Shown here piece after piece: positions 1,984-26,736 of a DNA stretch of 57,969 bases (its first letter is position 1; the number at the start of each line of letters is the position of its first letter). The notes beneath the pieces are model-generated. The model was not told where the DNA came from. It worked only from the letters and a program-made list of their open reading frames with translations, and did no database searches. The stretch is from a virus, in the IMG/VR virus record IMGVR_UViG_3300027740_000002, positions 1 through 57,969 of that record. One strand, given 5' to 3'. Made by a program: the position numbers and the translations under genes.

Positions 1984-2316
1984 ATGACCGAATCGAAAAT
2001 GCGAGAGTTGGACGAAGAAATGCACCGCATTTGTGGATGGGTGTTTGACGAATCCAGAAAGTGCTGGCATCGCGGAGGATTTTGGACAGCCGATTCTGGT
2101 AACTACACCACCGACCCCGCCGCTGCGATGGAGGTTTTAGAGAAGTGTTTCCCTGAGCTTGAAAGCATTGAAATTTGGAAATCGAGAGATGAGTTCTTTG
2201 TCTCATTTTCAGGGCGAAAATATGGGTGTTATGAAACTGCGATGCAAAAAACACTTCCGCTCGCCATCTGTGATTTTGCTAGGAGAAATTCAGACAAAAT
2301 AATCGCCCTCCAGTGA
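1984..2316 (+). CDS. Hypothetical protein, resembles phage ABA-sandwich-domain proteins
   Basis: ATG 1984. Pattern ELDEEMHRICGWVF...DPAAAMEVLEKC...LPLAICDFA recalls that small phage family. Recalled from memory, not searched. Confidence 0.4.
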   Translation: MTESKMRELDEEMHRICGWVFDESRKCWHRGGFWTADSGNYTTDPAAAMEVLEKCFPELESIEIWKSRDEFFVSFSGRKYGCYETAMQKTLPLAICDFARRNSDKIIALQ

Positions 2317-3923
2317 GTTGTTTCTGCCAGACCTCGAAACACGGTGACATCCTGAGCATTTTGCCGATGCTCTATCACGAATTTTTAACCTATGGGAGTA
2401 AACCGAATTTGGTTGTCTCAAAACAGTATCGCCAGATACCAGAGGCGATACCCTACATCAACCCGATCATTTACGACGGCGATCCTTTCGATCTTGAGGG
2501 GGCTATTAAATTCGCAAAGTCGAAATGTGACGATGTAAAAGTTACAAATCTTCACGGCATGGGCTTCAACTTCCAACATCGCCATCCGTCGTATCAATAC
2601 GATCAATGGGAGCGGGCTGGGTATTTGGACAAGTGGGATACGTTGCCTTTAATTCTGCCGCGTCAAATTAAAGGAAGCCTTCAAATCCCCGACGTGCCTT
2701 TCATCATCTTCGGCGACCATTCGCAAAGCTCTCCATTTTTCCATAAAGAGGATTTGGCGACCGCCTTGCAGGAAAACTTTCCGTCTTGGCTCATGGTGCG
2801 ACTTAGTTCTGTGCGGGCATCGCACCCGCTGGATTTATTGGCGCTCATGGACAAGGCGGATTTAATCATCTCGGTTGACTCCATGCAGCTTCACATGGGA
2901 AAGGCCACCACCACGCCGCTGATTGCACTCGTATCCGACCAGCCGACACGTTGGCAAGGCAGCGCCTACAGCAAGCGATTTGCCCTCCATTGTCGCTACG
3001 GTGACTTTCCGCGCCGCAAAGATGAGATTGTCCGCGTGGCGAAGAATTGCATTTCGGGGAAGCCTCAATTGGTGGCAACCCCGATGGACACCATGAAGGG
3101 TGGTTACAACCCGAGCATAATCCAGTTCGGAGATAAACCGATAAGCGTTCACAGGTACCACCCTAAACGCGCATGGCCGACCCGACTCGCGATCAATGAC
3201 GGCCAGACGAGCGACATTCTGTTTCCCGCCGAACTGGACGGCATCTCACTGGAGGACGCCCGCCTTTTCATTCATCAAGGCAAGCTGATGATTTCCTACG
3301 TGCTGGCGAAGTCGCGGCCCGTCAGCAACCAATTCCATTGCGTCATCGGTTACGGAATGCTCGTCCAGCGCGAAGGAAAGTGGCACGTCGAGAAGCACAT
3401 CCAACCCAAGTTCCGCAATAACGACTGGAGCGGCATGGTGAAAAATCTTTGCCCGTTTGAACACGACGGAAAGATTCATTTTATCTGGGGGAACTCACTC
3501 AACGAGCAAGTGGTTATCGAAGTTGACGGCGATAAGGTGACTCAGGAATACAGGTCGCCCGAACCCAAGTGGGCTTACGGCGAGATTCGCGGTGGCGCAA
3601 TCGTGAGGCACGGCGACAAGTTGCTGCGCCTCTTTCATTCGCGGACTGGCGCGGTTGGATACGGAGCGCATGGGACGTTTCAGTATCATGTGGGGGCTTC
3701 GTTAATGGAGGCGACTCCACCGTTTAAGACTGTGGCGGTGAGCAAGTGGCCGATCTTGAGCGGGGACGAAAGGTATGTGCCGGGATGTCATTCGTGGAAA
3801 CCGAATGTGGTATTTGTGGCCGGAGCAGTTAATGAGAGTTTCAGGCCGTTGCAGATTTCAATTGGAAGAAATGACAGCAGCAGTGAAATCGTGAAGCTCC
3901 AAGAGAGTGATTTGAATTTATGA
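2313..3923 (+). CDS. Two-domain glycosyltransferase: N-terminal GT9 (heptosyltransferase)-like domain plus a C-terminal beta-rich domain of uncertain family
   Basis: GTG start overlaps the previous stop (GTGA). Segment HPLDLLALMDKADLIISVDSMQLHMGKATTTPLIALVSD matches the GT9 C-domain signature. The C-terminal half (GGYNPSII..., GKLMISYV, GKIHFIWG, GGAIVRHGDKLL) looks like a beta-propeller. Confidence 0.5.
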   Translation: MSCFCQTSKHGDILSILPMLYHEFLTYGSKPNLVVSKQYRQIPEAIPYINPIIYDGDPFDLEGAIKFAKSKCDDVKVTNLHGMGFNFQHRHPSYQYDQWERAGYLDKWDTLPLILPRQIKGSLQIPDVPFIIFGDHSQSSPFFHKEDLATALQENFPSWLMVRLSSVRASHPLDLLALMDKADLIISVDSMQLHMGKATTTPLIALVSDQPTRWQGSAYSKRFALHCRYGDFPRRKDEIVRVAKNCISGKPQLVATPMDTMKGGYNPSIIQFGDKPISVHRYHPKRAWPTRLAINDGQTSDILFPAELDGISLEDARLFIHQGKLMISYVLAKSRPVSNQFHCVIGYGMLVQREGKWHVEKHIQPKFRNNDWSGMVKNLCPFEHDGKIHFIWGNSLNEQVVIEVDGDKVTQEYRSPEPKWAYGEIRGGAIVRHGDKLLRLFHSRTGAVGYGAHGTFQYHVGASLMEATPPFKTVAVSKWPILSGDERYVPGCHSWKPNVVFVAGAVNESFRPLQISIGRNDSSSEIVKLQESDLNL

Positions 3924-4393: not shown

Positions 4394-4672
4394 ATGAGCG
4401 AACCCAAAGGCAATGAACCGGCGTTTCCAATTTCAACATCCGTTGTTGAGCGATTCCGTCCAGAATCAGGAATCGCCGACAAGCACTATCCGGGACAAAC
4501 CTGCAATGGCCTCTCCAAGCGCGAATACTTTGCGGCGATGCCGCTTACCGAGACAGAGCTTTCAATGCTGAAAGCTGCGTACGATTCCCAAACCCAGGAA
4601 AAATCTTACACCTTGCAATCGCTGCGATTTTTCCATGCCGACAGAATGATTGCGGAAAGTGAGAAGGTATGA
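4394..4672 (+). CDS. Hypothetical phage protein (REYFAA-motif family)
   Basis: 92 aa. The GLSKREYFAAMPL motif is common in small phage proteins. Confidence 0.55.
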   Translation: MSEPKGNEPAFPISTSVVERFRPESGIADKHYPGQTCNGLSKREYFAAMPLTETELSMLKAAYDSQTQEKSYTLQSLRFFHADRMIAESEKV

Positions 4673-5100
4673 GCAATCAAGCGTGCTGTTCACATTCCAA
4701 AGTTGACCGGATTACAATTGACCACCCGGGAGGCACTAAATCCGAACGGTGGATTTGTCCTGATTGCAGCACGAACTTCTGGCCGGAAGGAACGGACATG
4801 CACATTAAAAAGCGCCGGGATATGTTTGCGGCGGCGGCGTTGACGGGGATGCTGGCAAACGGCGCGACAACCCCGAGGGTTGGAGACTTGACCACGCCAT
4901 ACTGCGCTGAGGCGTCCGCTTGGATTGCTGAATTGCTGCTGCGAGAATTGGAGAAGAACACGCCAGCCATATTAAGCCCTCACGCGCTGGCGCTATGGGA
5001 TAAATTCAATCGTATTTGGGACGGCAAGGCCGTTGGCCCGGAGTACGATGAAGCCTACCGAAAAGCCTGCAAAACAATTCCAGAAGGAAGATTGCCATGA
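4669..5100 (+). CDS. Hypothetical protein with an N-terminal Cys cluster
   Basis: 143 aa, ATGA-coupled. Contains CCSH...CPDC and RRDMFAAAALTGML. Confidence 0.55.
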   Translation: MSNQACCSHSKVDRITIDHPGGTKSERWICPDCSTNFWPEGTDMHIKKRRDMFAAAALTGMLANGATTPRVGDLTTPYCAEASAWIAELLLRELEKNTPAILSPHALALWDKFNRIWDGKAVGPEYDEAYRKACKTIPEGRLP

Positions 5101-5243
5101 AAACAAATCAAGAAGAACTCAGGGTTGGAAGCCCAGTAAGCTACCGCAGATTCATCAGACTTGAGCGCATCAATCCGATGGGGCAACACGAAACTGTTGA
5201 GCTTGACCACGAAGCGTTGGACATGGTTGTTGAACTGCCATGA
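5097..5243 (+). CDS. Small hypothetical protein (48 aa)
   Basis: ATG 5097 overlaps the previous TGA. Translated by hand to TGA at 5241-5243. Below the track size cutoff. Confidence 0.35.
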   Translation: MKTNQEELRVGSPVSYRRFIRLERINPMGQHETVELDHEALDMVVELP

Positions 5244-8615: not shown

Positions 8616-8814
8616 CTTGCGTTGCCGTTAATAACTCGAAAAGGCATTCGAGCGGGGCAGGATTCCGAAAAATCGCGCCATCCAAAAGCTGTCGTAGAGA
8701 GAGTAACTGCAACTGACAGCGGTTCTGATTCCTCATCAGAACAGTATCCAAGATAAAACGTAAACCCGTCCCGTCGTGCCTTTGGCCGATGCGACACAAC
8801 TCGATTTATTTTGT

Positions 8815-10161
8815 ATGGCTTTTGCATGTACGCCCGCTCAATTCATTTCTAACCTTGGCTCCCTTGCGCCGCACTTTGACGAAGGCTGGTTGCATGACTG
8901 GTCGGCGGTGGAGAATGTGTTTAACGGCAAACACCTGACAAGCACATGGGCGCTTGGCACTGGCGATGCCCATATCCGCACGCGGATTACCATTGGGTAT
9001 CCCAACCTGACGGCGCCCAAGGCCCAGATCAACAGTAGCAACTGCGCCACCGACCCTTGCAGCCCGCCAACCGATCATGTCTCCTTCGGCACGAACCGCA
9101 GCGAACACTTTATGACGCAGTGGGCGAAGAATACGCAGCCCTTCTGTATTACCCAACTGCGCTACCAGTACGATCCCGCTGGCCAGTTGAAGGAAATCAT
9201 CGAAGGCTTGCGGAAGATTCCCAAGATGGAGACGGCAAACTTCATCCGTACCCGCGCCCTCACTCTTTCCGAAAGTGTGGCGATTGCCGGGCCGGTTACG
9301 AGTGGCATCCCCAACACCTTCGTCCCGATCATCAACACCAACATTGATAACGAGGCGGTCACCATTGATTTAGGCAGCGCGGCGGCATTGCCAACAAGCC
9401 GGTTGACCTTCCCTTATCTCGACTGGATTACGGCGGTTACGGACTTGAGCGGATACCACGAGAAGCCATCAGGGTTGGCACCCGGCATATTCAATCTCAT
9501 CACTGACCGCTTTGAGTGGTTCAATCTTACAAATGGCAATGCCAGCATGAAAAACATGATGGCGCTGACCGAGGCGGGACAGGCGTCCGGCCTTTACAAG
9601 ATCGGCCAGGGGATTCAGACCCCGTTTGGAAACTATGCGCCATCAATTGACCATTACCCGATGCGATTCCAACTGATGCCGGGCGGCTCAGGTGGGTTAC
9701 TTAGCCGGGTGGAGCCGTTTTTTAACGCGCAGGATGGCACGACTGGCACGCGGCAGAAGGCGAATCCGGCATGGATCGCGGCAGATTACCAGTTGAGCTT
9801 CATCTGGCATCCAGAGGCGTTCATGGTTCACATGCCAGCCTTCGGTAAGATTCACCCGCTGGTGCCGTCCATCAATTCGGCCATGTACGGAAAGTGGCGC
9901 ACAGTGAACGATCCGGTGATGATTTACGAAAACCCGGACGGCACTACTTGCACGATGAACAATGTTGACCTCAACAAGTTCTATCTGCGCGTCAACTTCG
10001 AGATGGGCGCGGAGTACATCGAGCCGAACATGATTCTGCCGATCCTGCATCGGACTGGTTCGAGCCAGTTGCGCGCGATTACGAATGACATCCCGTGCGG
10101 GGCTGGTCAGGCGTATGTCGCTCAGTCCTACGACGACACGCCGATCATGTGCGAGGTCTAA
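8815..10161 (+). CDS. Putative major capsid protein
   Basis: About 449 aa (ATG 8815; alternative GTG 8776). Preceded by a 235-bp structured untranslated region and followed by a 12-bp-stem hairpin. Sits downstream of portal and scaffold. No motif-level proof. Confidence 0.45.
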   Translation: MAFACTPAQFISNLGSLAPHFDEGWLHDWSAVENVFNGKHLTSTWALGTGDAHIRTRITIGYPNLTAPKAQINSSNCATDPCSPPTDHVSFGTNRSEHFMTQWAKNTQPFCITQLRYQYDPAGQLKEIIEGLRKIPKMETANFIRTRALTLSESVAIAGPVTSGIPNTFVPIINTNIDNEAVTIDLGSAAALPTSRLTFPYLDWITAVTDLSGYHEKPSGLAPGIFNLITDRFEWFNLTNGNASMKNMMALTEAGQASGLYKIGQGIQTPFGNYAPSIDHYPMRFQLMPGGSGGLLSRVEPFFNAQDGTTGTRQKANPAWIAADYQLSFIWHPEAFMVHMPAFGKIHPLVPSINSAMYGKWRTVNDPVMIYENPDGTTCTMNNVDLNKFYLRVNFEMGAEYIEPNMILPILHRTGSSQLRAITNDIPCGAGQAYVAQSYDDTPIMCEV

Positions 10162-14202: not shown

Positions 14203-14355
14203 ATTTGAAGTGGCTTAACACAGACCCAAGCATGTACAGGCTCGCCATAAAGTAGCAGAAACAGGAGAACCAACCACCTGAAATAGATGCCAGAATCGCA
14301 TACAGAAGTGCTGTTATTTGGCCGATGTCTGATTGGCTCCAAGTTGAATTATTTT

Positions 14356-15072
14356 TCATAGCTTTACCTCCACCCGAAACGAAGCCACTGCTTGATTTGT
14401 GTGTAAAAACCCATGCAACTCCCCATCACCAACAAACTGCCCCAAGGTCTGCCACGTCGTCAGGTTGGTTGAGACTTTTACGAGGTTGGTCTTTCCAAGC
14501 ATCCCATACGCCGAAACCTGCCAGCACTGAGGCGCGAGGCTGATATAGAAGGGGGTCACGCCTGTAGCCTCGTTGGACGGCCTGCTCTCAGTGCCGTCAG
14601 CAAAGTAAGCGACTACGGCAGCAGAATAGCTCACACCCTCCTCTAGACCCTTTATCGTGGCATTGGTGACGTTACCAGCATCCGCCGAATAGAAGTAAAC
14701 CATCGGTGTAACTCCGTAGTAAATCCGATAGCCAGCCACGCGAGGATCGGCGTAAGCACTCCACGCCAGAGACAGGCTTCCGCGCTTGATGACCGGGGCG
14801 GCTGCGGCAATAGACACCGGAGCGGACGTTCGGATAGTCAAAGTCACTGGATTGGTGTCTGCGGGGGCTGTAAGGGCCGTCCTGACGGTCGCCCGCTGCG
14901 ATTCCACGGCCAGGATCACCGCGCTGGTGCGAGGCATTGGAGGCGTCGGCGCTACCTTGGACGACGAACAGCCAACCATAACCAAGAAAGTCCCGACGGC
15001 AAGGAACATGGCTCCAGCCAACATTTTGCAACACCAGAGCCATTCGTCAGCGAGAGAAAAGTATCGCTTCAT
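14356..15072 (-). CDS. Secreted lipoprotein with a fibronectin-type-III-like domain
   Basis: Start MKRYF at 15072. Lipobox LVMVGCSSS. FN3-like LAWSAYADPRVAGYRIYYG...IKGLEEGVSYSAAVVAY. C-terminus is STNLTTW...FRVEVKL. Confidence 0.6.
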   Translation of the reverse strand: MKRYFSLADEWLWCCKMLAGAMFLAVGTFLVMVGCSSSKVAPTPPMPRTSAVILAVESQRATVRTALTAPADTNPVTLTIRTSAPVSIAAAAPVIKRGSLSLAWSAYADPRVAGYRIYYGVTPMVYFYSADAGNVTNATIKGLEEGVSYSAAVVAYFADGTESRPSNEATGVTPFYISLAPQCWQVSAYGMLGKTNLVKVSTNLTTWQTLGQFVGDGELHGFLHTNQAVASFRVEVKL

Positions 15073-15326
15073 AATCTTAACGCTTTCTGCTCCAATCGGC
15101 AACGCTCCCGCCCCGACATGAAAGACCATATCACGGTTTCGCGCACAATTCGCTCGTCGTCTATCACGATGATCCTGCGGGCGATCTTGGTAGGATATTG
15201 TTCGGCGGTCAACGTAGCCAGTTTGTCGCGCCGCTCGCGGTCAAGCTTCCAGCGGGCGTTTGCCATTCTCCGTCCTCGTTCTCTAGCAGCCTTAATTTTA
15301 CGACGAATCCTAAATGATTCAGACAT
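15069..15326 (-). CDS. Basic hypothetical protein
   Basis: 85 aa, ATGA-coupled to the downstream lipoprotein gene. Confidence 0.5.
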   Translation of the reverse strand: MSESFRIRRKIKAARERGRRMANARWKLDRERRDKLATLTAEQYPTKIARRIIVIDDERIVRETVIWSFMSGRERCRLEQKALRL

Positions 15327-15374
15327 AAATAGATGTTTGGAATTCCTATTTGCCTCTAGTTGTATATCTACTTG

Positions 15375-15581
15375 TTAGGGTGCTTCGCCACAGGTGATAT
15401 TTGCCGCTTTGATTACCCGGCGGCGTTCTTCGTCATTCAGGTGCGCGATTGAGTTCACCACTTTTGAGTATGCGATGAGCATGGTTCGTTGACGCACCCT
15501 AACCACGCGCTGGACCAGAACCGGCTTCCCGCGTTTCAGTTCGGGAGCGCGTTTGCCTGTCTTGAGGTTTTTCTTCTTCAT
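15375..15581 (-). CDS. Hypothetical protein
   Basis: 68 aa, ATGA-coupled to the upstream ORF. An alternative internal ATG is at 15482. Confidence 0.45.
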   Translation of the reverse strand: MKKKNLKTGKRAPELKRGKPVLVQRVVRVRQRTMLIAYSKVVNSIAHLNDEERRRVIKAANITCGEAP

Positions 15582-15640
15582 ATGTTTTTGGGGTTGCGGC
15601 CAGCCGGTCGGTCAGCTTGGTCGTTCAGCAACTTCTCCCA
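15497..15640 (-). repeat. Junction element, degenerate copy
   Basis: Forward strand reads CCCTAACCACGCGC ... AGCTTGGTCGTTCAGC. Brackets the start at 15581. Confidence 0.5.
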
Positions 15641-15913
15641 GAAGTATGGCCCTCGGTTCATTTTGCGATTCGCGATACACGTCAGGCACGATTTCCATTT
15701 CGCTTCGGTGTAGATTCGTCGCACCGCGTGCGTTGCCACCCCTCCACAAAAGTCGCAGGTTGGCGAATGGGTTGCCGAACCATTCGCTGATGCGCGACTC
15801 GGCTGGGCGCAGGCAGTTTCAGAGGTTTCCGCTTCGTTCACATGGTCAGGCATCATTGAGTTCCTTTCGGTTTTGCCGCCGAGCCGCATAGCTCCCCGTT
15901 CGGCATCACTCAC
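15578..15913 (-). CDS. Hypothetical protein with CxxC pairs
   Basis: 111 aa. Contains CDFCGG...CLTC. Confidence 0.5.
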   Translation of the reverse strand: MSDAERGAMRLGGKTERNSMMPDHVNEAETSETACAQPSRASANGSATHSPTCDFCGGVATHAVRRIYTEAKWKSCLTCIANRKMNRGPYFWEKLLNDQADRPAGRNPKNI

Positions 15914-16082
15914 CCGCGCTGATGACGATGCAGTTGATGTCCTCGATTTTGGTTTCCGATACCTTGACCGGCAGCGCGTGCATTTCGCCTGGCATGTCGA
16001 ACACCGGAACAGCGATTACCGCCCTGATGTCAGGTCCGGCGAGTAGTTCACGAGCTAGTTCGTGTGATGTTTTGTATGTCAT
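15906..16082 (-). CDS. Small hypothetical protein
   Basis: ATG 16082 (MTYKTSHELAREL...). The track ORF extends to a GTG at 16133. Confidence 0.4.
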   Translation of the reverse strand: MTYKTSHELARELLAGPDIRAVIAVPVFDMPGEMHALPVKVSETKIEDINCIVISAGE

Positions 16083-16101
16083 ATCCGTGCTGCCGAACCA
16101 A

Positions 16102-16425
16102 TCAGTCCAGCGAAAGTGGCGGGCGGTCGCCACAGGTTTTAGTTGCGCCAGCGACCGCCACTTCGCTGACTTCTGCGTTAGCCGACTCGCGCTTTTTCAT
16201 GGCGATGTCTATTGCCGCCCGCAGATTTCGGTGGCATCCAGCGCCCGCGCCGAGCGAGTTGCCTTTTGTGTAGATGACCCATGTGTATGATTCGCCGTCC
16301 TCTGGCGCTTCCACGTCTGCTCTGTTTTCGATGAGCCAGTTCAGACGATTTGTGTCTGGAAGGTTCAACCGTCGGCTAACCATGCGGTCGAGCCAATGCC
16401 GGATTGCGTCTCGGATTGTTCTCAT
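16102..16425 (-). CDS. Hypothetical protein
   Basis: 107 aa. The start lies inside junction element copy 16374-16482. Confidence 0.5.
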   Translation of the reverse strand: MRTIRDAIRHWLDRMVSRRLNLPDTNRLNWLIENRADVEAPEDGESYTWVIYTKGNSLGAGAGCHRNLRAAIDIAMKKRESANAEVSEVAVAGATKTCGDRPPLSLD

Positions 16426-16482
16426 AAGGTTTCTGGTTGGCGTGAGCCACTGTCCCGGCGTGGCTCACCTTTGTCGTTAGGC
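16374..16482 (-). repeat. Junction element copy
   Basis: Forward strand reads GGCTAACCATGCGG ... GTCGTTAGGC. Contains the 9-bp perfect hairpin GTGAGCCAC/GTGGCTCAC and the start at 16425. Confidence 0.65.
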
Positions 16483-16734
16483 CAACCGAGGCGCGTGTAT
16501 GCGTAACAGTTCAGCCACTTCGGGGATTCGTTCTTCCAGCGTCTGCCATTCGTATGACGGCAGCGCAAAGAACGGCTTCACATTTCCTTTGCGGAGTTCA
16601 GCTATTGCAGTCAGCCAGGCTTCGGCTAGCGGCACATGTTCGTCAGCCAGCATTTGGAGTGATTGTAGCGCCGGGTCGGGATGGCCTAACAAGGGCGCTA
16701 CAGCGAACCCGGCGATTGACGATTCAGGTTTCAT
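16477..16734 (-). CDS. Hypothetical protein
   Basis: 85 aa. The start lies inside the junction element, and the stop is the TAA of a GCCTAACG motif. Confidence 0.5.
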   Translation of the reverse strand: MKPESSIAGFAVAPLLGHPDPALQSLQMLADEHVPLAEAWLTAIAELRKGNVKPFFALPSYEWQTLEERIPEVAELLRIHAPRLA

Positions 16735-16778
16735 AAAGCTTTGGTTTCAGTTGAGCGACCCTAGCTTGGTCGTTAGGC
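16684..16778 (-). repeat. Junction element copy
   Basis: Forward strand reads GCCTAACAAGGGCGCTACAGCGAACCCGGC ... GAGCGACCC ... GTCGTTAGGC. Brackets the start at 16734. Confidence 0.65.
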
Positions 16779-16943
16779 GTGCTTCGCCCACAGCATGAGT
16801 CCACCGAGCACCAGAGCACCGATGCAAGCAGCCCACATGATTTTTGGGTTTCGGCGTTCAGCCGAGAGCCATCCGAGCCACGCAGTCACCGCACAGGTGA
16901 CGAGCCAGCCCCATTGGAAGTATGCGATTCCGATTTCTTTCAT
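16773..16943 (-). CDS. Small membrane protein (two TM segments)
   Basis: ATG 16943 (MKEIGIAYFQWGWLVTCAVTAWLGW...IGALVLGGLMLWA). The track ORF extends to a TTG at 17015 inside the junction element. Confidence 0.5.
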   Translation of the reverse strand: MKEIGIAYFQWGWLVTCAVTAWLGWLSAERRNPKIMWAACIGALVLGGLMLWAKHA

Positions 16944-16967
16944 GTTGGTTTTGTGTTTGAGACGCAC

Positions 16968-17059
16968 GCCTAACCATGCGCTCCAGCGAACGGCGGCATC
17001 GCGTCTCAGTTTCAATCGGTGCGCCTTGTGTGCCGGGTCGCTGAGTTCCGGCGTTAGGC
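16968..17059 (-). repeat. Junction element copy
   Basis: Forward strand reads GCCTAACCATGCGCTCCAGCGAACGGCGGC ... GCCGGGTCGCT ... GGCGTTAGGC. Confidence 0.65.
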
Positions 17060-17224
17060 ATCACCGCGCTTTTGGTCGTGATGGACATGATAGACATGCA
17101 CACAGTCGAGTTTGACTTTTTCGAGCACCGCGATGAGGTCCATGATTCGCAGATCGGATTCCTCAGTGTAGCGATTGATGAGATTATGAAGCTCATGTTC
17201 GAGTTGTTCGGCGGCTGGAGTCAT
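17054..17224 (-). CDS. Small helical hypothetical protein (56 aa)
   Basis: Hand-translated: MTPAAEQLEHELHNLINRYTEESDLRIMDLIAVLEKVKLD...GDA. The ATG overlaps the TGA of a 22-codon uORF. Below the track cutoff. Confidence 0.4.
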   Translation of the reverse strand: MTPAAEQLEHELHNLINRYTEESDLRIMDLIAVLEKVKLDCVHVYHVHHDQKRGDA

Positions 17225-17289
17225 ATTTGTATTTCGATGTTGATGCCTAACCGTGCGCGAACCGGCGGTGTAGTCTCAGGTTGTTTCAT
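17221..17289 (-). CDS. 22-codon upstream ORF embedded in a junction element
   Basis: ATG 17289 in the context AACCTTATGAAAC, encoding MKQPETTPPVRARLGINIEIQI. Its TGA overlaps the next ATG. Confidence 0.25.
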   Translation of the reverse strand: MKQPETTPPVRARLGINIEIQI

Positions 17290-17347
17290 AAGGTTATGGT
17301 TTGTCCTCAGCCCCAGTTCGCCGGGTCGCTCACGCAGGTCGTTAGGT
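17245..17347 (-). repeat. Junction element copy
   Basis: Forward strand reads GCCTAACCGTGCGCGAACCGGCGG ... GCCGGGTCGCTCACGCAGGTCGTTAGGT. Brackets the uORF start at 17289. Confidence 0.65.
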
Positions 17348-17364
17348 GTCAAGAGTCGCCATAG

Positions 17365-18240
17365 CTAGCGCCCAGCCCATTTCGGCAGCGCGATCTTCCG
17401 CACGCCAGATAAATATCCCGGCCAACGATCCTCCTTCACGCATTTGGCGTAAGCAAGGAGGAGTCTGCGCCATTCTTGATAGCCCGCGTTTTGCGCGTCT
17501 TGATCCAATTCAAATTGACAGGCGTCGAACGGCTCTGAATCGTCGAAGGGGACGAATACAAATCGCGATGCGCCGGTGATTGCAAGGTAGCTCATCATCT
17601 GGACGTGGTAGCCGAAGGTCGCGCAGGACTTCCCAAAATCCCGCTCGTTGGCCTCGCCCGGCTGAACCTTCTTGGGATCGAAAATCCAAGTCTGGTTGTC
17701 GGTGGTGTTTGCCACCAAATCGCAGCGGCATTTGAGCATCAATCCCGTCTCCTCGTCGCGCTTGAAAAACGAGACTTCGGTTTGTCCGGTCTTGAGGGCA
17801 GAGCCGAATTCGGGAAGTGCCAGCATTCGCTCCCGAATCATTGGCAGCTTGTTTAGCTGTTCTTGGGTCATTACGGGGCGGTCTTGGTGGCTGGCGATCC
17901 ACACCTTACAAGTATCAGAACTGCCGTGCCATGGCTTCGTCACCAACTTGCCTCGAATCTCCGCCTCGTAGGTTTCAGGGCGAAGGTGGTAAGCCGCGTG
18001 CAGCAAATCGGGTTGCAGAATAGCGCAGTGAGCGACGGTCCCGAATTCCATATCCGCCGTGGCCTCTTTCTTTTTGCGATGCTTGAAATGCAGGGGCGTC
18101 GAAGCCTCGTGGAATTCCCAGAGGAGGGATTTAGATACCGCGTTAGCTGAGTGGTAAATTTCAGCGGGCAGGTCGGTAAAAACTCCCTCGGCGGGGTTGG
18201 TGGGGTCGAAGGTCACAGCTTTGTATTTATCCACGGCCAC
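17365..18240 (-). CDS. PD-(D/E)XK exonuclease (DUF3799 / RecE-like), partner of RecT
   Basis: 291 aa. Contains FGTVAHCAILQP and CRCDLV...IFDPKKV (D...D-x-K). Lies two genes downstream of RecT. Confidence 0.7.
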   Translation of the reverse strand: MAVDKYKAVTFDPTNPAEGVFTDLPAEIYHSANAVSKSLLWEFHEASTPLHFKHRKKKEATADMEFGTVAHCAILQPDLLHAAYHLRPETYEAEIRGKLVTKPWHGSSDTCKVWIASHQDRPVMTQEQLNKLPMIRERMLALPEFGSALKTGQTEVSFFKRDEETGLMLKCRCDLVANTTDNQTWIFDPKKVQPGEANERDFGKSCATFGYHVQMMSYLAITGASRFVFVPFDDSEPFDACQFELDQDAQNAGYQEWRRLLLAYAKCVKEDRWPGYLSGVRKIALPKWAGR

Positions 18241-18473
18241 ACTTCTTTTCCGAACACCGCCTCAATTGCCACTTCCTGAATGTAGTGGCCGAAATCTTCA
18301 TCCGCCCCACCCTCGGCGAGCGCGGCGATGTATTTTTCGCATAGCTCCAATAACGGCTTGAAGTCGGGATTTTCGATCCGCTTGGGAAGCGAGTGAACCG
18401 CCTCAACAACCCTCCTTGCTTCAAGCTCGCGCTCCAAATCTTCTGTTTTGAATTCTGAGAGAGTAACTTTCAC
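18213..18473 (-). CDS. Hypothetical protein
   Basis: 86 aa, between RecT and the exonuclease. Confidence 0.5.
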   Translation of the reverse strand: MKVTLSEFKTEDLERELEARRVVEAVHSLPKRIENPDFKPLLELCEKYIAALAEGGADEDFGHYIQEVAIEAVFGKEVWPWINTKL

Positions 18474-19525
18474 GCTTCCCCCTTAATGGCTTTCAACATC
18501 GCCCCCGCCGCGTTGATGTTGCTGGTTAGCGCCGTCACCTTCCCCGGCAGCAGGTCGGCCAACTTGTCGCCCGCAGTTTCCGGCTTGAAGCAATTGCCTT
18601 TCGACACGCAAAAGGCCAGGACTTGAGATTCGGTAACGCCCTTGGCTGTCATGGCGAGCCGCAGGGCGACGAATTCAGGGCTTTCGCCGTCAACGACTTC
18701 CTCAAACGAAGGTTCTTTGGAAGTGACGCCAACTGCGGCAGCAGGAAACGGCGCCGGTCCTGGAACCGGCACAACCTCGGCCTCGACCGGATTTTTGATT
18801 TCAAGGCCCGGTGTGGTGAATTTTGCCATTTGCGGCGGCTTGGCTTTCTTGGGGGCTTCTGGTGCTACAAATACGGGCGGCAATTCCAATTCCCCAACCG
18901 GCTTGGATCGGGCGAACCGTTCCTCTTCGCGAATGCGGTCGGCGTCGTCCTCTGTAATGACGCCCAAGACAATCTCCGGCTTGTGCCGCCGCGCCCATTT
19001 CGTCGCCCCGGTGTAAACCAGCTTTTGCATTGGGTCTTTTGTCCACATGGAATTTTGCGTCCGCGCCTCTTTGACGCTGACCGTCACCGTCCGGGCCTCC
19101 TGCTCACCCTCAAAACGACCGGAAACAGTTACCTCCAAATCGTCGCCTTTCTTGTCGTTGAAGGTGTAGGAGAGCTTATCGGCAAGGCCAGCACGGGCAT
19201 TGATGACGGCGGCGAGGAGCTTGCCTTGGAATCCCAGCTTGCCGCCGACTTCGTAAGTCTCGGGCGCGACGGCGAAGGGATCAAAGCCCCAACGGATTGC
19301 TTGATTGACGACCAGGAAGCAGTTCGCGGCGGTTTGATCGGCGCTGTCACCCTTGAGATGCTTGGGGATCAAGCTGGCGCGGGCCATCATTTGAGCCACG
19401 CGGTAGCAGTGCTCAAACTTGGCGGTGTCCATCATGTAGCTGATGGCTGAATCGTCTTGAACAATTTTGACTTCGCGCTTCGGCTGGACTGCTACGGCTG
19501 TAGTTGTGGTTTGTGTGTCAGACAT
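18470..19525 (-). CDS. recT: RecT-family single-strand annealing protein
   Basis: 351 aa. RVAQMMARASLIPKHLKG...CFLVVNQAIRWGFDPFAV...GKLGFQGKLLAAVINARAGL is RecT-like. Confidence 0.75.
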   Translation of the reverse strand: MSDTQTTTTAVAVQPKREVKIVQDDSAISYMMDTAKFEHCYRVAQMMARASLIPKHLKGDSADQTAANCFLVVNQAIRWGFDPFAVAPETYEVGGKLGFQGKLLAAVINARAGLADKLSYTFNDKKGDDLEVTVSGRFEGEQEARTVTVSVKEARTQNSMWTKDPMQKLVYTGATKWARRHKPEIVLGVITEDDADRIREEERFARSKPVGELELPPVFVAPEAPKKAKPPQMAKFTTPGLEIKNPVEAEVVPVPGPAPFPAAAVGVTSKEPSFEEVVDGESPEFVALRLAMTAKGVTESQVLAFCVSKGNCFKPETAGDKLADLLPGKVTALTSNINAAGAMLKAIKGEA

Positions 19526-19623
19526 ATATTCGGATTGTTTTTCGGTTTTCTAAAATTGTTGCCGCCCGTTTAGCGGTTGTGTTTCCCGCGCACAGATTGG
19601 CTTTGGAGTTGCATTATGTTCTG

Positions 19624-19872
19624 TCACGGGCGGCAGTTTGTTTTAACGCATAGAGCTTCCCGCAGTGCCGTGACCGAACGGCGAGCCTCAATTCCTCTCT
19701 GGTGTTCCGCGTCTTGCAGCGGACTTATGCAAAGATTCCCTATCGTCGGTTTCCGGTAGCGTGTTAGACAGCCCGGAAGTTCCCTCGGGAGCAGCGCAAC
19801 CCCTTGCGGAGCGTGGATAGAATTTGCGCGTGTTTTCATTTTGACTCCGATATTAACTGCGGGGAAAATCAT
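19624..19872 (-). CDS. Doubtful ORF upstream of recT (may instead be a structured leader)
   Basis: 82 aa, ATGA-coupled to the HTH gene, Arg/Cys-rich. Ends inside a 9-bp inverted repeat. Confidence 0.3.
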   Translation of the reverse strand: MIFPAVNIGVKMKTRANSIHAPQGVALLPRELPGCLTRYRKPTIGNLCISPLQDAEHQRGIEARRSVTALREALCVKTNCRP

Positions 19873-20054
19873 TTATCATACTTCCTCAAACACCGCTCAC
19901 AGCGATGCTTCAAATCAGGCAGGCCGCGCTTGACGCGCTGTTGCACCGCCTGAAACGTGATGCCGTAAAGACTGGCGATGTCGCGGTTGTGACTGCCCTT
20001 GGCCTTGAGTTTCAGGATCGTCGGCAGGGTTAGGGTTTTAGTTCCTTTGGTCAT
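19869..20054 (-). CDS. Small helix-turn-helix DNA-binding protein
   Basis: 61 aa. NRDIASLYGITFQAVQQRVKRG is an HTH of the sigma-70 region 4 / resolvase type. Confidence 0.55.
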   Translation of the reverse strand: MTKGTKTLTLPTILKLKAKGSHNRDIASLYGITFQAVQQRVKRGLPDLKHRCERCLRKYDK

Positions 20055-23740: not shown

Positions 23741-23944
23741 ATGAAATTCTCTGATTCCTCGAATTCAACCGGCGCAACACGGCTTTACAATGAGCTTTAC
23801 GAGTTGGTTGAATCTTACCTGACAACACCAAACACAAACCCACGAATCGAAGATCACTACAAAGCTTTGGTCGCTTGGTTTGTCAGGAACAAAAGACCGG
23901 ATGGAAGCGAACCGCGTCCGGTTTCGCCAGGTGGAGCGTTATGA
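23741..23944 (+). CDS. Hypothetical protein
   Basis: ATG 23741; 67 aa. Confidence 0.45.
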   Translation: MKFSDSSNSTGATRLYNELYELVESYLTTPNTNPRIEDHYKALVAWFVRNKRPDGSEPRPVSPGGAL

Positions 23945-25529: not shown

Positions 25530-25745
25530 TCAGGGTGACTCGAAAGATTGACCGGCTTCACGAGGCTGATCGTCTCGCGGTGCGGTTTTCGAGTCAACGG
25601 TTTTTGTCCTTGTCCAAAACTTTGAACGAGATGGAGCGAAGCGATCTGGCGTGACCTGCAACCGAGGCTCCGCTGCTTCTGTTTTTGTGTTTGTAGTTGC
25701 CTCTGCCTCTGAGAGCGTTAGGACGTTAGGTTTTGTAACAATCAC
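25530..25745 (-). CDS. Hypothetical protein
   Basis: 71-aa low-complexity ORF. Its first codons overlap two CGTTAGG repeats. Confidence 0.35.
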   Translation of the reverse strand: MIVTKPNVLTLSEAEATTNTKTEAAEPRLQVTPDRFAPSRSKFWTRTKTVDSKTAPRDDQPREAGQSFESP

Positions 25746-25785
25746 GATTTCTAACGGACACTAACGGAATATCGTTAGTCTAACG
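25716..25785. promoter_or_regulatory. Operator-like cluster: six copies of CCTAACG/CGTTAGG
   Basis: CGTTAGG at 25716 and 25724, CTAACGG at 25751 and 25761, CGTTAG at 25773, CTAACG at 25780. Lies immediately upstream of the promoter. Confidence 0.6.
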
Positions 25786-25794
25786 AAATAAGTA

Positions 25795-25822
25795 TTGACG
25801 GTTGGTTTTTGGTCTGTAATAT
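25795..25822 (+). promoter_or_regulatory. Sigma70-like promoter of the replication block
   Basis: TTGACG, a 16-nt spacer, TAATAT. ATG 25830 begins 8 nt after the -10 element. Confidence 0.6.
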
Positions 25823-25829
25823 CGCTCCA

Positions 25830-26030
25830 ATGATCCAGAAAATAACCAACAAATACGGGCTTAAAGGCAAGATTTGTCCATTTTGTCATACGCCCGTAAA
25901 AGTCGGTGATTTTTTATGGTCAACGGTAAGTTCAAATCAGGTTTTCGTCTGCGAGTCGTGTCTGTCGCGGGGTTTGAAAATACTTCTGGGAGTCTATCTC
26001 AACCTGTCTCAAAGAAAGGAGTCGAACTGA
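25830..26030 (+). CDS. Small zinc-ribbon protein
   Basis: ATG 25830. Contains CPFCHT...CESC. Confidence 0.45.
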   Translation: MIQKITNKYGLKGKICPFCHTPVKVGDFLWSTVSSNQVFVCESCLSRGLKILLGVYLNLSQRKESN

Positions 26031-26031
26031 A

Positions 26032-26736
26032 ATGTACGGTAAATTGTTTGAAAGAATGTACACGGGATCAATGATGGGATCGGGGGCCATGATGTTTGCG
26101 GTCTGGCCCTACATAATCGCCCACATGAAACCAAACCGGGATCGGACGGTTTTCACGGTGGAATTGAACGCGGCGCTAATGGCGGTTTTGATCGGGGAGG
26201 ACGAGGCGGAAATCGCCGACATTATCAAGCAGTGCTGTGAGCCTGATTTGAAGTCCAGGACACCAGACAAAGAGGGCAGGAAGTTGATAAAGTTAAGCGA
26301 GTATCTTTACGAAGTCGTGAACGGAAATGTTTACGATCAAATCAGGCGGGCCGAGGATTTGAAGGAAGGCAACCGGCGCCGCCAAGCCAAGTTCTACCAA
26401 AAGAAAACCTCCGAAAATGGAGCGCCTGAACCGGCCACTCCGCCCCCCGAAAAACCCGCAACCTTCCCCACAAATATCGACACTGAATCCTTTTCCGAAG
26501 CTTGGAACAAATGGCTCGGACACCTGAAACAAAAACGCAAACCCGCGACCGCCCACGCCCAAGAACTTCAACTCAAAAAGCTCGCCAACATGGGGGAGAA
26601 AAGGGCGATTCAGACCTTGTATCACTGTATCGAGAAAGGCTGGCAGGGGATTTACGAGCCGGGCGAAAACTCCAACCACGAAACATCCCCCTCCCAACTT
26701 TCCGACGCCGAATTAGTCCGGCAGGCACAGCTTTAA
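26032..26736 (+). CDS. Putative replication initiator / replisome-organizer-like protein
   Basis: 234 aa, immediately upstream of dnaB. The C-terminal F..AW..W......K...IEKGWQGIYEP resembles DnaD/organizer C-domains. Confidence 0.45.
   Translation: MYGKLFERMYTGSMMGSGAMMFAVWPYIIAHMKPNRDRTVFTVELNAALMAVLIGEDEAEIADIIKQCCEPDLKSRTPDKEGRKLIKLSEYLYEVVNGNVYDQIRRAEDLKEGNRRRQAKFYQKKTSENGAPEPATPPPEKPATFPTNIDTESFSEAWNKWLGHLKQKRKPATAHAQELQLKKLANMGEKRAIQTLYHCIEKGWQGIYEPGENSNHETSPSQLSDAELVRQAQL

Follow-up and report, generated by a model that had tools for sequence, protein, structure and literature searches.

What are the imperfect palindromes of about 100 nt that alternate with short - strand open reading frames (ORFs), downstream of the RecT gene, in the early operon of the phage recorded in IMG/VR as IMGVR_UViG_3300027740_000002 (positions 1 to 57,969, the whole stretch analysed here, called the window below and used for all coordinates unless another contig is named)? 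A first reading of the letters, hereafter the original prediction, had reported five copies and had offered for them an RNA processing or translation-control hairpin, a recombination boundary for cassette exchange, or a set of binding sites for a phage protein. We think that the elements are very probably integron attC sites of the chromosomal family of Verrucomicrobiota, and that the stretch that holds them is a phage CALIN, on which the integrase (IntI) of the host would act in trans. CALIN stands for a cluster of attC sites lacking integron integrase (Cury et al. 2016, PMC4889954). Positions 15374-17347, between the RecT and exonuclease genes on one side and the gene of a fn3 protein on the other, would thus be a row of seven to eight small cassettes, each with its gene.

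The terminal arms of the elements are inverted repeats (GCCTAACG ... GGTTAGGC) and their inner blocks, AGCGACCCGG and CCGG(G)TTCGC, are mutually complementary, both as previously described. In integrons, the attC consensus comprises RYYYAAC (the inverse core site, R'') and GTTRRRY (the core site, R'). The arm sequences GCCTAAC and GTTAGGC satisfy it to the letter, the lengths of the elements (92-133 nt) lie inside the attC range (57-141 nt), and each element comes after a short ORF, hence the attC hypothesis to be tested. The AAC and GTT triplets are conserved in all seven full elements (A to G in the list below). Elements A, B and C match both arm consensuses fully, and D, F, G and E deviate at one or two degenerate arm positions (GTTAGCC, GGCTAAC, GTTCGGC, GCCGAAC, GCTGAAC); these variants are also present in arrays linked to an integron integrase gene (intI). 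A plain count of RYYYAAC...GTTRRRY pairs is weak, with 4 in the window and 1.6 in shuffles, and we do not rely on it as evidence. Our attC calls rest instead on a custom covariance model (R1), on an arm rule, on bulge geometry and on intI-linked relatives.

The model R1 was made from 18 non-redundant bacterial attC sites flanking intI in metagenome-assembled genomes (MAGs) of Verrucomicrobiota, with zero phage sites among them, and was run on the entire 58-kb window with filters off. Its consensus fold consists of a 7-bp R box, an 8/6-nt unpaired spacer and 3 bp with one bulged base, followed further in by 6 bp with a bulged T, another 6 bp and a variable loop. Of the 22 pairs in the alignment of these 18 bacterial sites, 15 show compensatory changes, covariation being one of the checks that the original prediction had proposed. 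In the window R1 gives exactly seven significant matches, all full length and all on the - strand, with scores from 65.6 to 24.6 bits and E-values that span 1e-13 to 6e-4, far beyond chance; the next best match is the opposite strand of B (17.4 bits, E 0.03), and D, the best site, scores just 7.5 bits on the + strand. Site B is also 81-83% identical, over its full length, to 93-nt bacterial attC sites of four intI-linked contigs (L050, L055, L057 and L038). Five sites (B, D, F, G and E) reach 8/8 for bulge geometry on the - strand, where the mirror model gives 5-7: a single base bulges out at 3 bp from a spacer of 5-6 nt. Validated attC bottom strands have the same geometry, the bulged base lying in their 3' half, again 3 bp from the spacer (PMC9892861 Table S3).

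All five copies reported earlier are thus present where they had been placed, with the difference that the covariance model puts the 5' end of E at 15629 and not at 15640. Their number had been underestimated, since F, G and the half-site H had been overlooked: there are seven full elements and one terminal half-site, every one on the - strand (7 sites in 1.85 kb). The parts of the locus are listed here in the order of transcription, sites A to G being candidate attC sites and the ORFs between them putative cassettes.

18470-19525, - strand: RecT gene, upstream of the array.
17365-18240, - strand: gene of a PD-(D/E)XK exonuclease (DUF3799), part of the phage backbone, upstream of the array; DNA homology to relatives stops at its end.
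17245-17347, - strand: site A, 103 nt, immediately following the exonuclease gene; arms ACCTAAC...GTTAGGC; apex AACCTTATGAAAC; R1 25.9 bits, E 3e-4.
17054-17224, - strand: g56, cassette ORF of 56 aa; stop TAA within the 5' arm of B; homologs in contigs L010, L018 and L021.
16968-17059, - strand: site B, 92 nt; R1 55.8 bits, E 2e-11; 8/8 bottom-strand bulge geometry.
16773-16943, - strand: gTM, cassette ORF of 56 aa, predicted membrane protein; stop TAA in the 5' arm of C; Markov - strand margin +3.1 bits.
16684-16778, - strand: site C, 95 nt; R1 24.6 bits, E 6e-4.
16477-16734, - strand: g85, cassette ORF; probable start at the apex ATG of C; stop TAA in the 5' arm of D; homologs P0070-P0072.
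16374-16482, - strand: site D, 109 nt; 3' arm variant GTTAGCC; R1 65.6 bits, E 1e-13; 8/8 bulge geometry.
16102-16425, - strand: g107, cassette ORF; probable start at the apex ATG of D; runs through F; Markov - strand margin +15.4 bits.
16092-16183, - strand: site F, 92 nt; 5' arm GGCTAAC, 3' arm GTTCGGC; R1 40.1 bits, E 1e-7.
15906-16082, - strand: g75, cassette ORF; 58 aa from the ATG at 16082, the listed ORF starting from a GTG at 16133; Markov - strand margin +9.5 bits.
15774-15904, - strand: site G, 131 nt; arms GCCGAAC...GTTCGGC; R1 39.2 bits, E 2e-7.
15578-15913, - strand: g111, cassette ORF; probable start at an ATG pair in the apex of G; Markov - strand margin +8.3 bits.
15497-15629, - strand: site E, 133 nt; arms GCTGAAC...GTTAGGG; R1 34.6 bits, E 3e-6.
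15375-15581, - strand: g68, cassette ORF; probable start at the apex ATG of E; ends at half-site H.
15374-15380, - strand: terminal half-site H, CCCTAAC, exact complement of the 3' arm of E (GTTAGGG); end of the array, followed by AT-rich sequence.
14356-15129, - strand: gene of a fn3-containing protein, part of the phage backbone, downstream of the array; homology to relatives resumes here.

The sites are regularly spaced, as had been noticed (288, 281 and 296 nt from start to start along A-B-C-D), and this holds for the rest of the array (299, 279 and 275 nt along D-F-G-E). In B, C and D, the TAA inside GCCTAACG does terminate the upstream ORF. Site B has the layout GCCTAAC-UCS-CTCAGCG...CGCT(G)GAG-CGCATG-GTTAGGC (UCS being the unpaired spacer). 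Site A has a degenerate L box and lacks about 5 nt of its 3' half, and in C the 5' half of the L box is rearranged, with GGGTCGCT in place of AGCGACCC. The terminal stem of F was also picked up in other ways, as a 17-nt inverted repeat at 16114-16163 (82% complementary, 16-nt loop) and, on the + strand, where a T-rich tail follows it, as a terminator-like site at 16116-16133. No cassette ORF has a Pfam or PHROGs match. The last small ORF before the fn3 gene (15069-15326, - strand), just past half-site H, encodes 85 aa and is very basic, rich in Arg and Lys; with a coding score of -8.2 bits it may be a nucleic-acid-binding protein or no gene at all.

Do the arms tell us how such an array came about? 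The recombination point of integrons lies inside the core site, and the variable bases that open a cassette should therefore go with the inverse core site that closes it, and not with the attC next to them. When the 3' arm of each element is compared with the 5' arm of the next one, across the intervening gene, 48 of 49 positions are complementary, against 42 of 49 within elements:

GTTAGGC (3' arms of A, B, C) with GCCTAAC (5' arms of B, C, D): 7/7, three times.
GTTAGCC (D) with GGCTAAC (F): 7/7.
GTTCGGC (F) with GCCGAAC (G): 7/7.
GTTCGGC (G) with GCTGAAC (E): 6/7.
GTTAGGG (E) with CCCTAAC (H): 7/7.

This pairing takes in four variant arm pairs, and the orderings of the elements that do equally well (12 of 5040) are trivial permutations of identical arms. 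The same rule is seen in a control, the intI-linked bacterial array L054 (7, 7, 7, 7 and 7 across genes, 4-6 within elements), in the viral arrays L107 (7s throughout across genes) and L105, and in two relatives of the phage (GTTATGC ... GCATAAC in L014, TTAGAGG ... CCTCTAA in L001). Such chimeric arms are the classical signature of integron cassettes and of past site-specific crossovers. That arms match across genes argues both against a transposon with inverted repeats of its own and against a diffuse homologous exchange.

One alternative can be weighed on this ground, namely that the elements are inserts of the kind of miniature inverted-repeat transposable elements (MITEs) or repetitive extragenic palindromes (REPs), or else operator sites of a phage DNA-binding protein, which would recognise a cluster of CTAACG motifs at 25716-25785 as well. 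Terminal inverted repeats and a uniform size of about 100 nt would suit a mobile insert, and the hexamer CTAACG is indeed shared with that dense cluster, which lies in a divergent regulatory region and exists as announced: 6 of the 18 CTAACG/CGTTAG hexamers of the window fall within its 70 nt. The MITE reading was nevertheless rejected, as the arms pair across genes rather than within elements; moreover, no target-site duplications were found and there is no transposase in the window. As for operators, the 25.7-kb cluster does not fit the attC model (8 bits, E 5, that is, not scored as attC). We find this whole alternative scarcely credible. The cluster deserves a word of its own: read on the + strand, 25716-25830 contains two direct GTTAGG, a 27-nt spacer, two direct CTAACGG and the palindrome CGTTAG-T-CTAACG, where early genes of the - strand diverge from + strand genes beginning at 26032, and looks like an operator set that shares a hexamer with the attC arms. 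Elsewhere, a 51-nt palindrome at 23763-23813 has perfect 7-nt arms (ATTCAAC...GTTGAAT) that fit RYYYAAC/GTTRRRY loosely; the attC model misses it and gives a weak match beside it (23827-23879, 12 bits, E 0.6).

The first cassette leads to a bacterial integron family. Four JGI contigs (L021-L024) carry an 81% identical homolog of g56, flanked on both sides by elements of about 100 nt with the design GCCTAACG-7 nt-CTGAGCCACCGCCG ... CGGCGGTTGGCTCCGG-CGACTG-GTTAGGC. In L021 a gene of 352 aa, some 500 bp from the g56 homolog, scores 431.8 bits (E 1.6e-129) on the NCBIfam model TIGR02249 for integron integrases, whose curated cutoff is 265 bits; the integron of this contig is complete and comprises five attC sites, one duplicated cassette and the junction GCCTAAC|AGATAAG beside intI. 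L022 has the same g56 cassette followed by another attC, and no further cassette is common to the arrays compared. The two copies of the duplicated cassette of L021 (1-118 and 1263-1384) have 118 nt identical, and downstream of its intI (3480-3720) runs a series of tandem repeats of about 30 nt (GGAACTACTTTGGTTCGTC...).

A search with the L021 integrase, one genome per species, found 357 relatives, of which the best 80 were used as bacterial loci; nearly all of these 80 come from Verrucomicrobiota MAGs (Verrucomicrobiae, Limisphaerales, Pedosphaera). Upstream of their intI genes stand arrays of 90-130-nt palindromes, 250-550 bp apart, and R1 finds 229 sites in the 80 loci, all on the intI strand and all 5' of intI. 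The sole named homolog of the phage exonuclease is a protein of a Pedosphaera MAG (54% identity), in agreement with the taxonomy of the IntI relatives, and the host is likely a member of the Verrucomicrobia of the Limisphaerales/Pedosphaera type. Six contigs with IntI and attC sites of the Verrucomicrobia type (L050, L055, L059, L082, L052, L080) are filed under MAGs of Klebsiella, Bifidobacterium/Bifidobacteriaceae or Akkermansia; these odd labels are probably binning errors around repetitive integron arrays, at least for Klebsiella and Bifidobacterium/Bifidobacteriaceae.

The g56 cassette also occurs in other phages. The Logan contig L010 encodes an identical protein with 95% nucleotide identity, all differences inside g56 being synonymous, which confirms its reading frame; the shared block is 201 nt long and runs exactly from GGTTAGGC to GCCTAACG, with unrelated neighbours beyond both ends. 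The phage-like contig L018 (49.9 kb) has the same block, at 94%, with the same limits plus a few bases, and a 95% identical protein. In three phage contexts, then, homology begins with GGTT(A/C)GGC and stops at GCCTAACG, and the check proposed earlier, that relatives should differ in genes at the borders of the element, gives the expected answer in L010 and L018, where the block is bounded at the arms. In L010, a strong sigma70-like promoter (1891-1919, TTGACA-17 nt-TAATAT) stands upstream of a 72-aa ORF whose TAG stop lies inside the GGTTAGGC that opens the shared block; divergent from this ORF is a gene of 541 aa weakly similar (22%, E 2e-14) to the ORF 8776-10161 of the window. Two of the cassette genes have, in addition, homologs in ordinary translationally coupled operons without attC (that of g85 in L110, 1127-1327, and that of g56 in L019, 4001-4168), so that g56 and g85 occur in cassette and non-cassette forms. 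The g85 homolog of L110 ends ...GGCATAACTG, with a RYYYAAC-like 7-mer around its stop codon.

Which enzyme would move these cassettes? Pfam scans of the window's substantial ORFs found no tyrosine-recombinase domain, and a six-frame tblastn of the window with the L021 integrase found no intI (best E 0.67), so that the window holds no complete integron; with at least two clustered attC sites and no intI in the window, the array falls under the definition of a CALIN. We suppose that, when the array is single-stranded, each attC would fold into a hairpin of R box, unpaired spacer and L box with extrahelical bases, that a chromosomal integron of the host would supply the integrase in trans and cut within the conserved 7-mer arm, and that cassettes would be excised or inserted, with the outcome that related phages hold different small early genes at one locus. 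That the host IntI performs the recombination, the mechanism with the best support, and that recombination is still ongoing, we infer from signatures in the sequences.

Several observations weigh against this reading and should be acknowledged. A cut of the bottom strand only, at RYYYAA|C, predicts that a cassette brings along the attC situated before it when the coding strand is read. In L010 the downstream limit fits such a cut, divergence setting in right after GCCTAACG into a different attC, and in L018 the downstream attC is B-like in its first 31 nt only. The upstream junctions do not fit: of an attC, L010 retains just the 3' arm there and L018 about 15 nt, and the g56 block is bounded at both arms in the two contigs, with no flanking attC body that clearly travels with it. 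Decay of the distal attC, occasional recombination of the top strand, or a contribution of RecT and the exonuclease are possible causes of this misfit. Further, no recombination was observed, and neither a circular cassette nor an alternative array order of this exact phage was seen; the call of the host rests on the 54% Pedosphaera homolog and on the taxonomy of the IntI relatives; the coding strand of the five cassettes without homologs rests on Markov margins of 3-15 bits; and sites A and C, degenerate in the L box (25.9 and 24.6 bits), may be inactive.

The bounded g56 block, which departs from what a single-arm crossover by IntI predicts, leads to a second alternative: the repeats could be substrates for homologous or annealing shuffling by the RecT and exonuclease of the phage, without any integron integrase. 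RecT and the PD-(D/E)XK exonuclease are encoded immediately upstream of the array, and the copies are 57-82% alike, sufficient for their arms to anneal. Were homologous exchange to take place inside 100-nt repeats, however, the breakpoints would be scattered, whereas the variant 7-mers co-vary across genes at single-base precision (48/49), just as in intI-linked arrays, and the element family flanks intI in 80 bacterial loci. The closest parallel for such shuffling, cited in the original prediction, are the PeSLs of T4-type phages, repeated intergenic stem-loops with an early promoter that bound small early ORFs in a hyperplastic region and for which modular shuffling has been proposed; they are not known to have a family of site-specific recombinases of their own. 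The elements studied here resemble PeSLs as repeated stem-loops around small early ORFs, but they belong to the attC family and contain no promoter-like site: there is no sigma70-like promoter on the - strand in 14300-20000, in a scan that covers the sigma70 type, from which host promoters may differ. The earlier idea of a cassette-exchange boundary is borne out in so far as the elements are attC, and its PeSL model is not the best fit; we judge shuffling without an integron integrase to be improbable.

If we return to attC sites recombined by a host IntI, the orientation of the genes is what sets this array apart. In the canonical layout of a cassette the ORF is on the top strand of attC, with attC after its gene, and the bottom strand, the one that is recombined, is the other strand. 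In the bacterial arrays the ORFs are accordingly opposite to the strand of the model in 76 of 92 gaps between attC sites, with 1 on the same strand and 15 ambiguous. In the window, all the cassette ORFs are on the strand that has the bottom-strand geometry and the R1 match, and the canonical layout is not what is seen. Coding on the - strand is supported by the flanking operon, which is on this strand, by the conservation of g56 in that frame and by the homologs of g85 (P0070-P0072). It is also favoured in 7 of 8 gaps (+53.5 bits in sum) by a 3-periodic Markov model trained on the long genes of the window, with a cross-validated accuracy of 96.9% on 190-nt pieces; the exception is the gap of g56, decided by homology. 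Two other indicators were put aside, the comparison of longest ORFs by strand, misleading here as open frames of the + strand run through the attC sites, and plain codon log-odds, unreliable for the A-B gap. L018 is likewise inverted, and so are, judged by ORF length, most of L105 and L107. The only same-strand case among the bacterial arrays that we examined in detail consists of the g56 homolog of L021 and its neighbour, and a g56 homolog that lies backward is what one would expect if a bacterial integron had captured a phage cassette.

As a consequence of this polarity each attC stands upstream of an ORF on the mRNA. The original prediction had drawn attention to a conserved start context, and the apex AACCTTATGAAAC is indeed found in A, D and C, with a TTG version in B; the reading frame through the element is, as had been remarked, not constant (A differs from B, and D from A, B and C). 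The apex ATG of inverted attC sites accounts for this context: g85, g107, g111 and g68 open at the apex ATG of C, D, G and E respectively, that of A opens a 22-codon frame ending in an ATGA overlap with the start of g56, and gTM shares its frame with the apex TTG of B, at 17015. A further ATGA, inside E, joins the stop of g111 to the start of g68. On this evidence the apex would supply the start codon of the downstream ORF in four to six of seven cases. P0070-P0072, the homologs of g85, start some 20 aa further on, where the attC has just ended, and the homolog of L110 has its own ATG there; since conserved starts lie past the attC and L110 has no attC, the apex of C appears to give the upstream start in the window. 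The apex motif is borne by two bacterial attC sites as well (L071:3368, L034:7433). Inversion of a whole array combined with start codons inside attC is a new architecture, different from that of bacterial arrays.

Here a third alternative must be considered, according to which the elements are primarily RNA, either processing sites of the RNase III type or hairpins that would tie the stop of one ORF to the start of the next, at the apex ATG. The strand of the hairpin is the mRNA strand, the upstream stop codon is in the 5' arm of three copies, an apex ATG or TTG opens the downstream ORF or overlaps it as ATGA, conserved g85 proteins start just past the attC with the apex ATG as the only upstream in-frame start, and RNA folding of copy A is clearly better than that of its shuffles (z = -4.4). 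This check, proposed with the hairpin idea, fails for the other copies that had been reported (B -0.7, C -1.7, D -1.8, E +0.6), there is no terminator within the elements on the coding strand, and Rfam, which holds no attC family, gives nothing relevant at gathering thresholds or at E <= 10. The intergenic RNase III sites of T7 are conserved hairpins between early genes on the transcript. The present elements are likewise intergenic hairpins of an early region, but their family is defined at the level of DNA, and in bacterial integrons it is antisense to the ORFs, which means that conservation is not for a function on mRNA. As the identity of the elements, an RNA processing or translation-control hairpin is not supported, and we regard it as very unlikely. 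An RNA function could be an added role in phages, without explaining what the element is, and the attC hairpin, lying on the mRNA strand with starts in its apex, may have a secondary effect on translation.

How does the locus behave in related phages? The window is taken to be a phage genome from its gene content (DnaB, RecT, exonuclease, methyltransferases, large Ig-domain and tail-like proteins) and from a size of about 58 kb, common to L001 and L015 (L013 is about 50 kb). No tRNA or tmRNA was found, and blastn of the region gave no match among GenBank phages. The closest IMG/VR relative, L001, has an 83% identical exonuclease (amino acids) and is collinear with the window on both sides of the array; DNA homology is lost at 17375, at the end of the exonuclease gene, and regained at about 14796, inside the fn3 gene. 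In L001 the slot measures 0.58 kb and holds two unrelated small ORFs and attC-like remnants, against a stretch of 2.2 kb with elements in the window. L013, L014/15/16 and L017, with exonucleases 70-74% identical, have each another gene set at the slot, and in L014 a recognisable element follows directly after the exonuclease gene. With a different gene set in each of these relatives, the slot is the hypervariable spot in the early operon of this phage lineage.

R1 detects sites in other phage contigs too, five of them in L018 and a single one in L014/15/16, in every case on the strand that codes for the genes, and it finds 12 sites in L105, 9 in L107/L108, 3 in L106 and 2 in L109, five more IMG/VR contigs that came from a pattern scan. 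Distant relatives of the exonuclease (L002-L009, 25-31% identity) have no such elements, and a scan of JGI metagenomes with a protein pattern derived from the exonuclease alignment confirmed no relative. In L018 an N6_N4 DNA methyltransferase gene (4456-5166, 229 aa) forms a cassette with its ATG inside the preceding attC. The early region of L013 has received the insertion of an IS1595-family transposase gene (2225-3094; Zn_ribbon_IS1595 and DDE_Tnp_IS1595).

Phage CALINs were first reported in 2023: Qi et al. found 17 of them in 10,705 phage genomes, and IntI1 recombined 5 of 6 phage attC sites tested (PMC9892861). The array described here resembles theirs as a set of attC sites without intI in an apparently virulent phage, with cassettes of unknown function, and the N6_N4 methyltransferase cassette of the related array L018 belongs to a class of cargo that this paper reported. 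It differs in that its attC family is traced to chromosomal integrons of the probable host phylum, that one cassette is shared with an intI-linked array, that it occupies a hypervariable slot, and that it is inverted as a whole, whereas the paper describes co-oriented arrays and does not report inversion. With attC sites and CALINs in general it has in common the arm consensus, the R box, spacer and L box, the extrahelical bases, the variable terminal structure and the length range of 57-141 nt, as well as at least 2 sites within 4 kb, no intI, small promoterless ORFs between the sites and chimeric sites; the ORFs on the bottom-like strand, the starts inside attC, the phage replicon and the degeneracy of 2 of the 7 sites are particular to it. 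With the sedentary chromosomal integrons of Verrucomicrobiota (L021, L025-L104) it shares the attC family (types of 93, 99, 108 and 126 nt) with its GCCTAACG...GTTAGGC arms, the 250-550 bp spacing of cassettes and the chimeric-arm rule. Their arrays are located 5' of intI with ORFs pointing away from it (76/92), whereas the phage has no intI and uses the opposite attC strand.

Integrons are viewed as platforms of gene capture in bacteria, and the phage array described here is tied to the integron family of the probable host phylum. Its confinement to one hypervariable slot suggests that phages can borrow a recombinase of their host to diversify small early genes, a class that often counters host defences. 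On a practical level, annotators of phage genomes would otherwise label such elements as unknown repeats and misplace the starts of genes. One may go further and imagine, tentatively and with the odds somewhat against it, that one lineage of phages of Verrucomicrobia maintains a separate pool of cassettes in which attC comes first (inverted cassettes). Early genes such as g56 and g85 would there have gained attC sites of the host type, oriented so that the bottom strand is on the mRNA and its apex gives the start codon, and would be reshuffled by the host integrase, bacterial integrons capturing them backwards, as in L021. The same genes with and without attC flanks are in any case concrete material for studying the origin of cassettes and, if this idea of an inverted pool kept by phages were true, such cassette and non-cassette pairs would make the question of how a cassette is born directly approachable.

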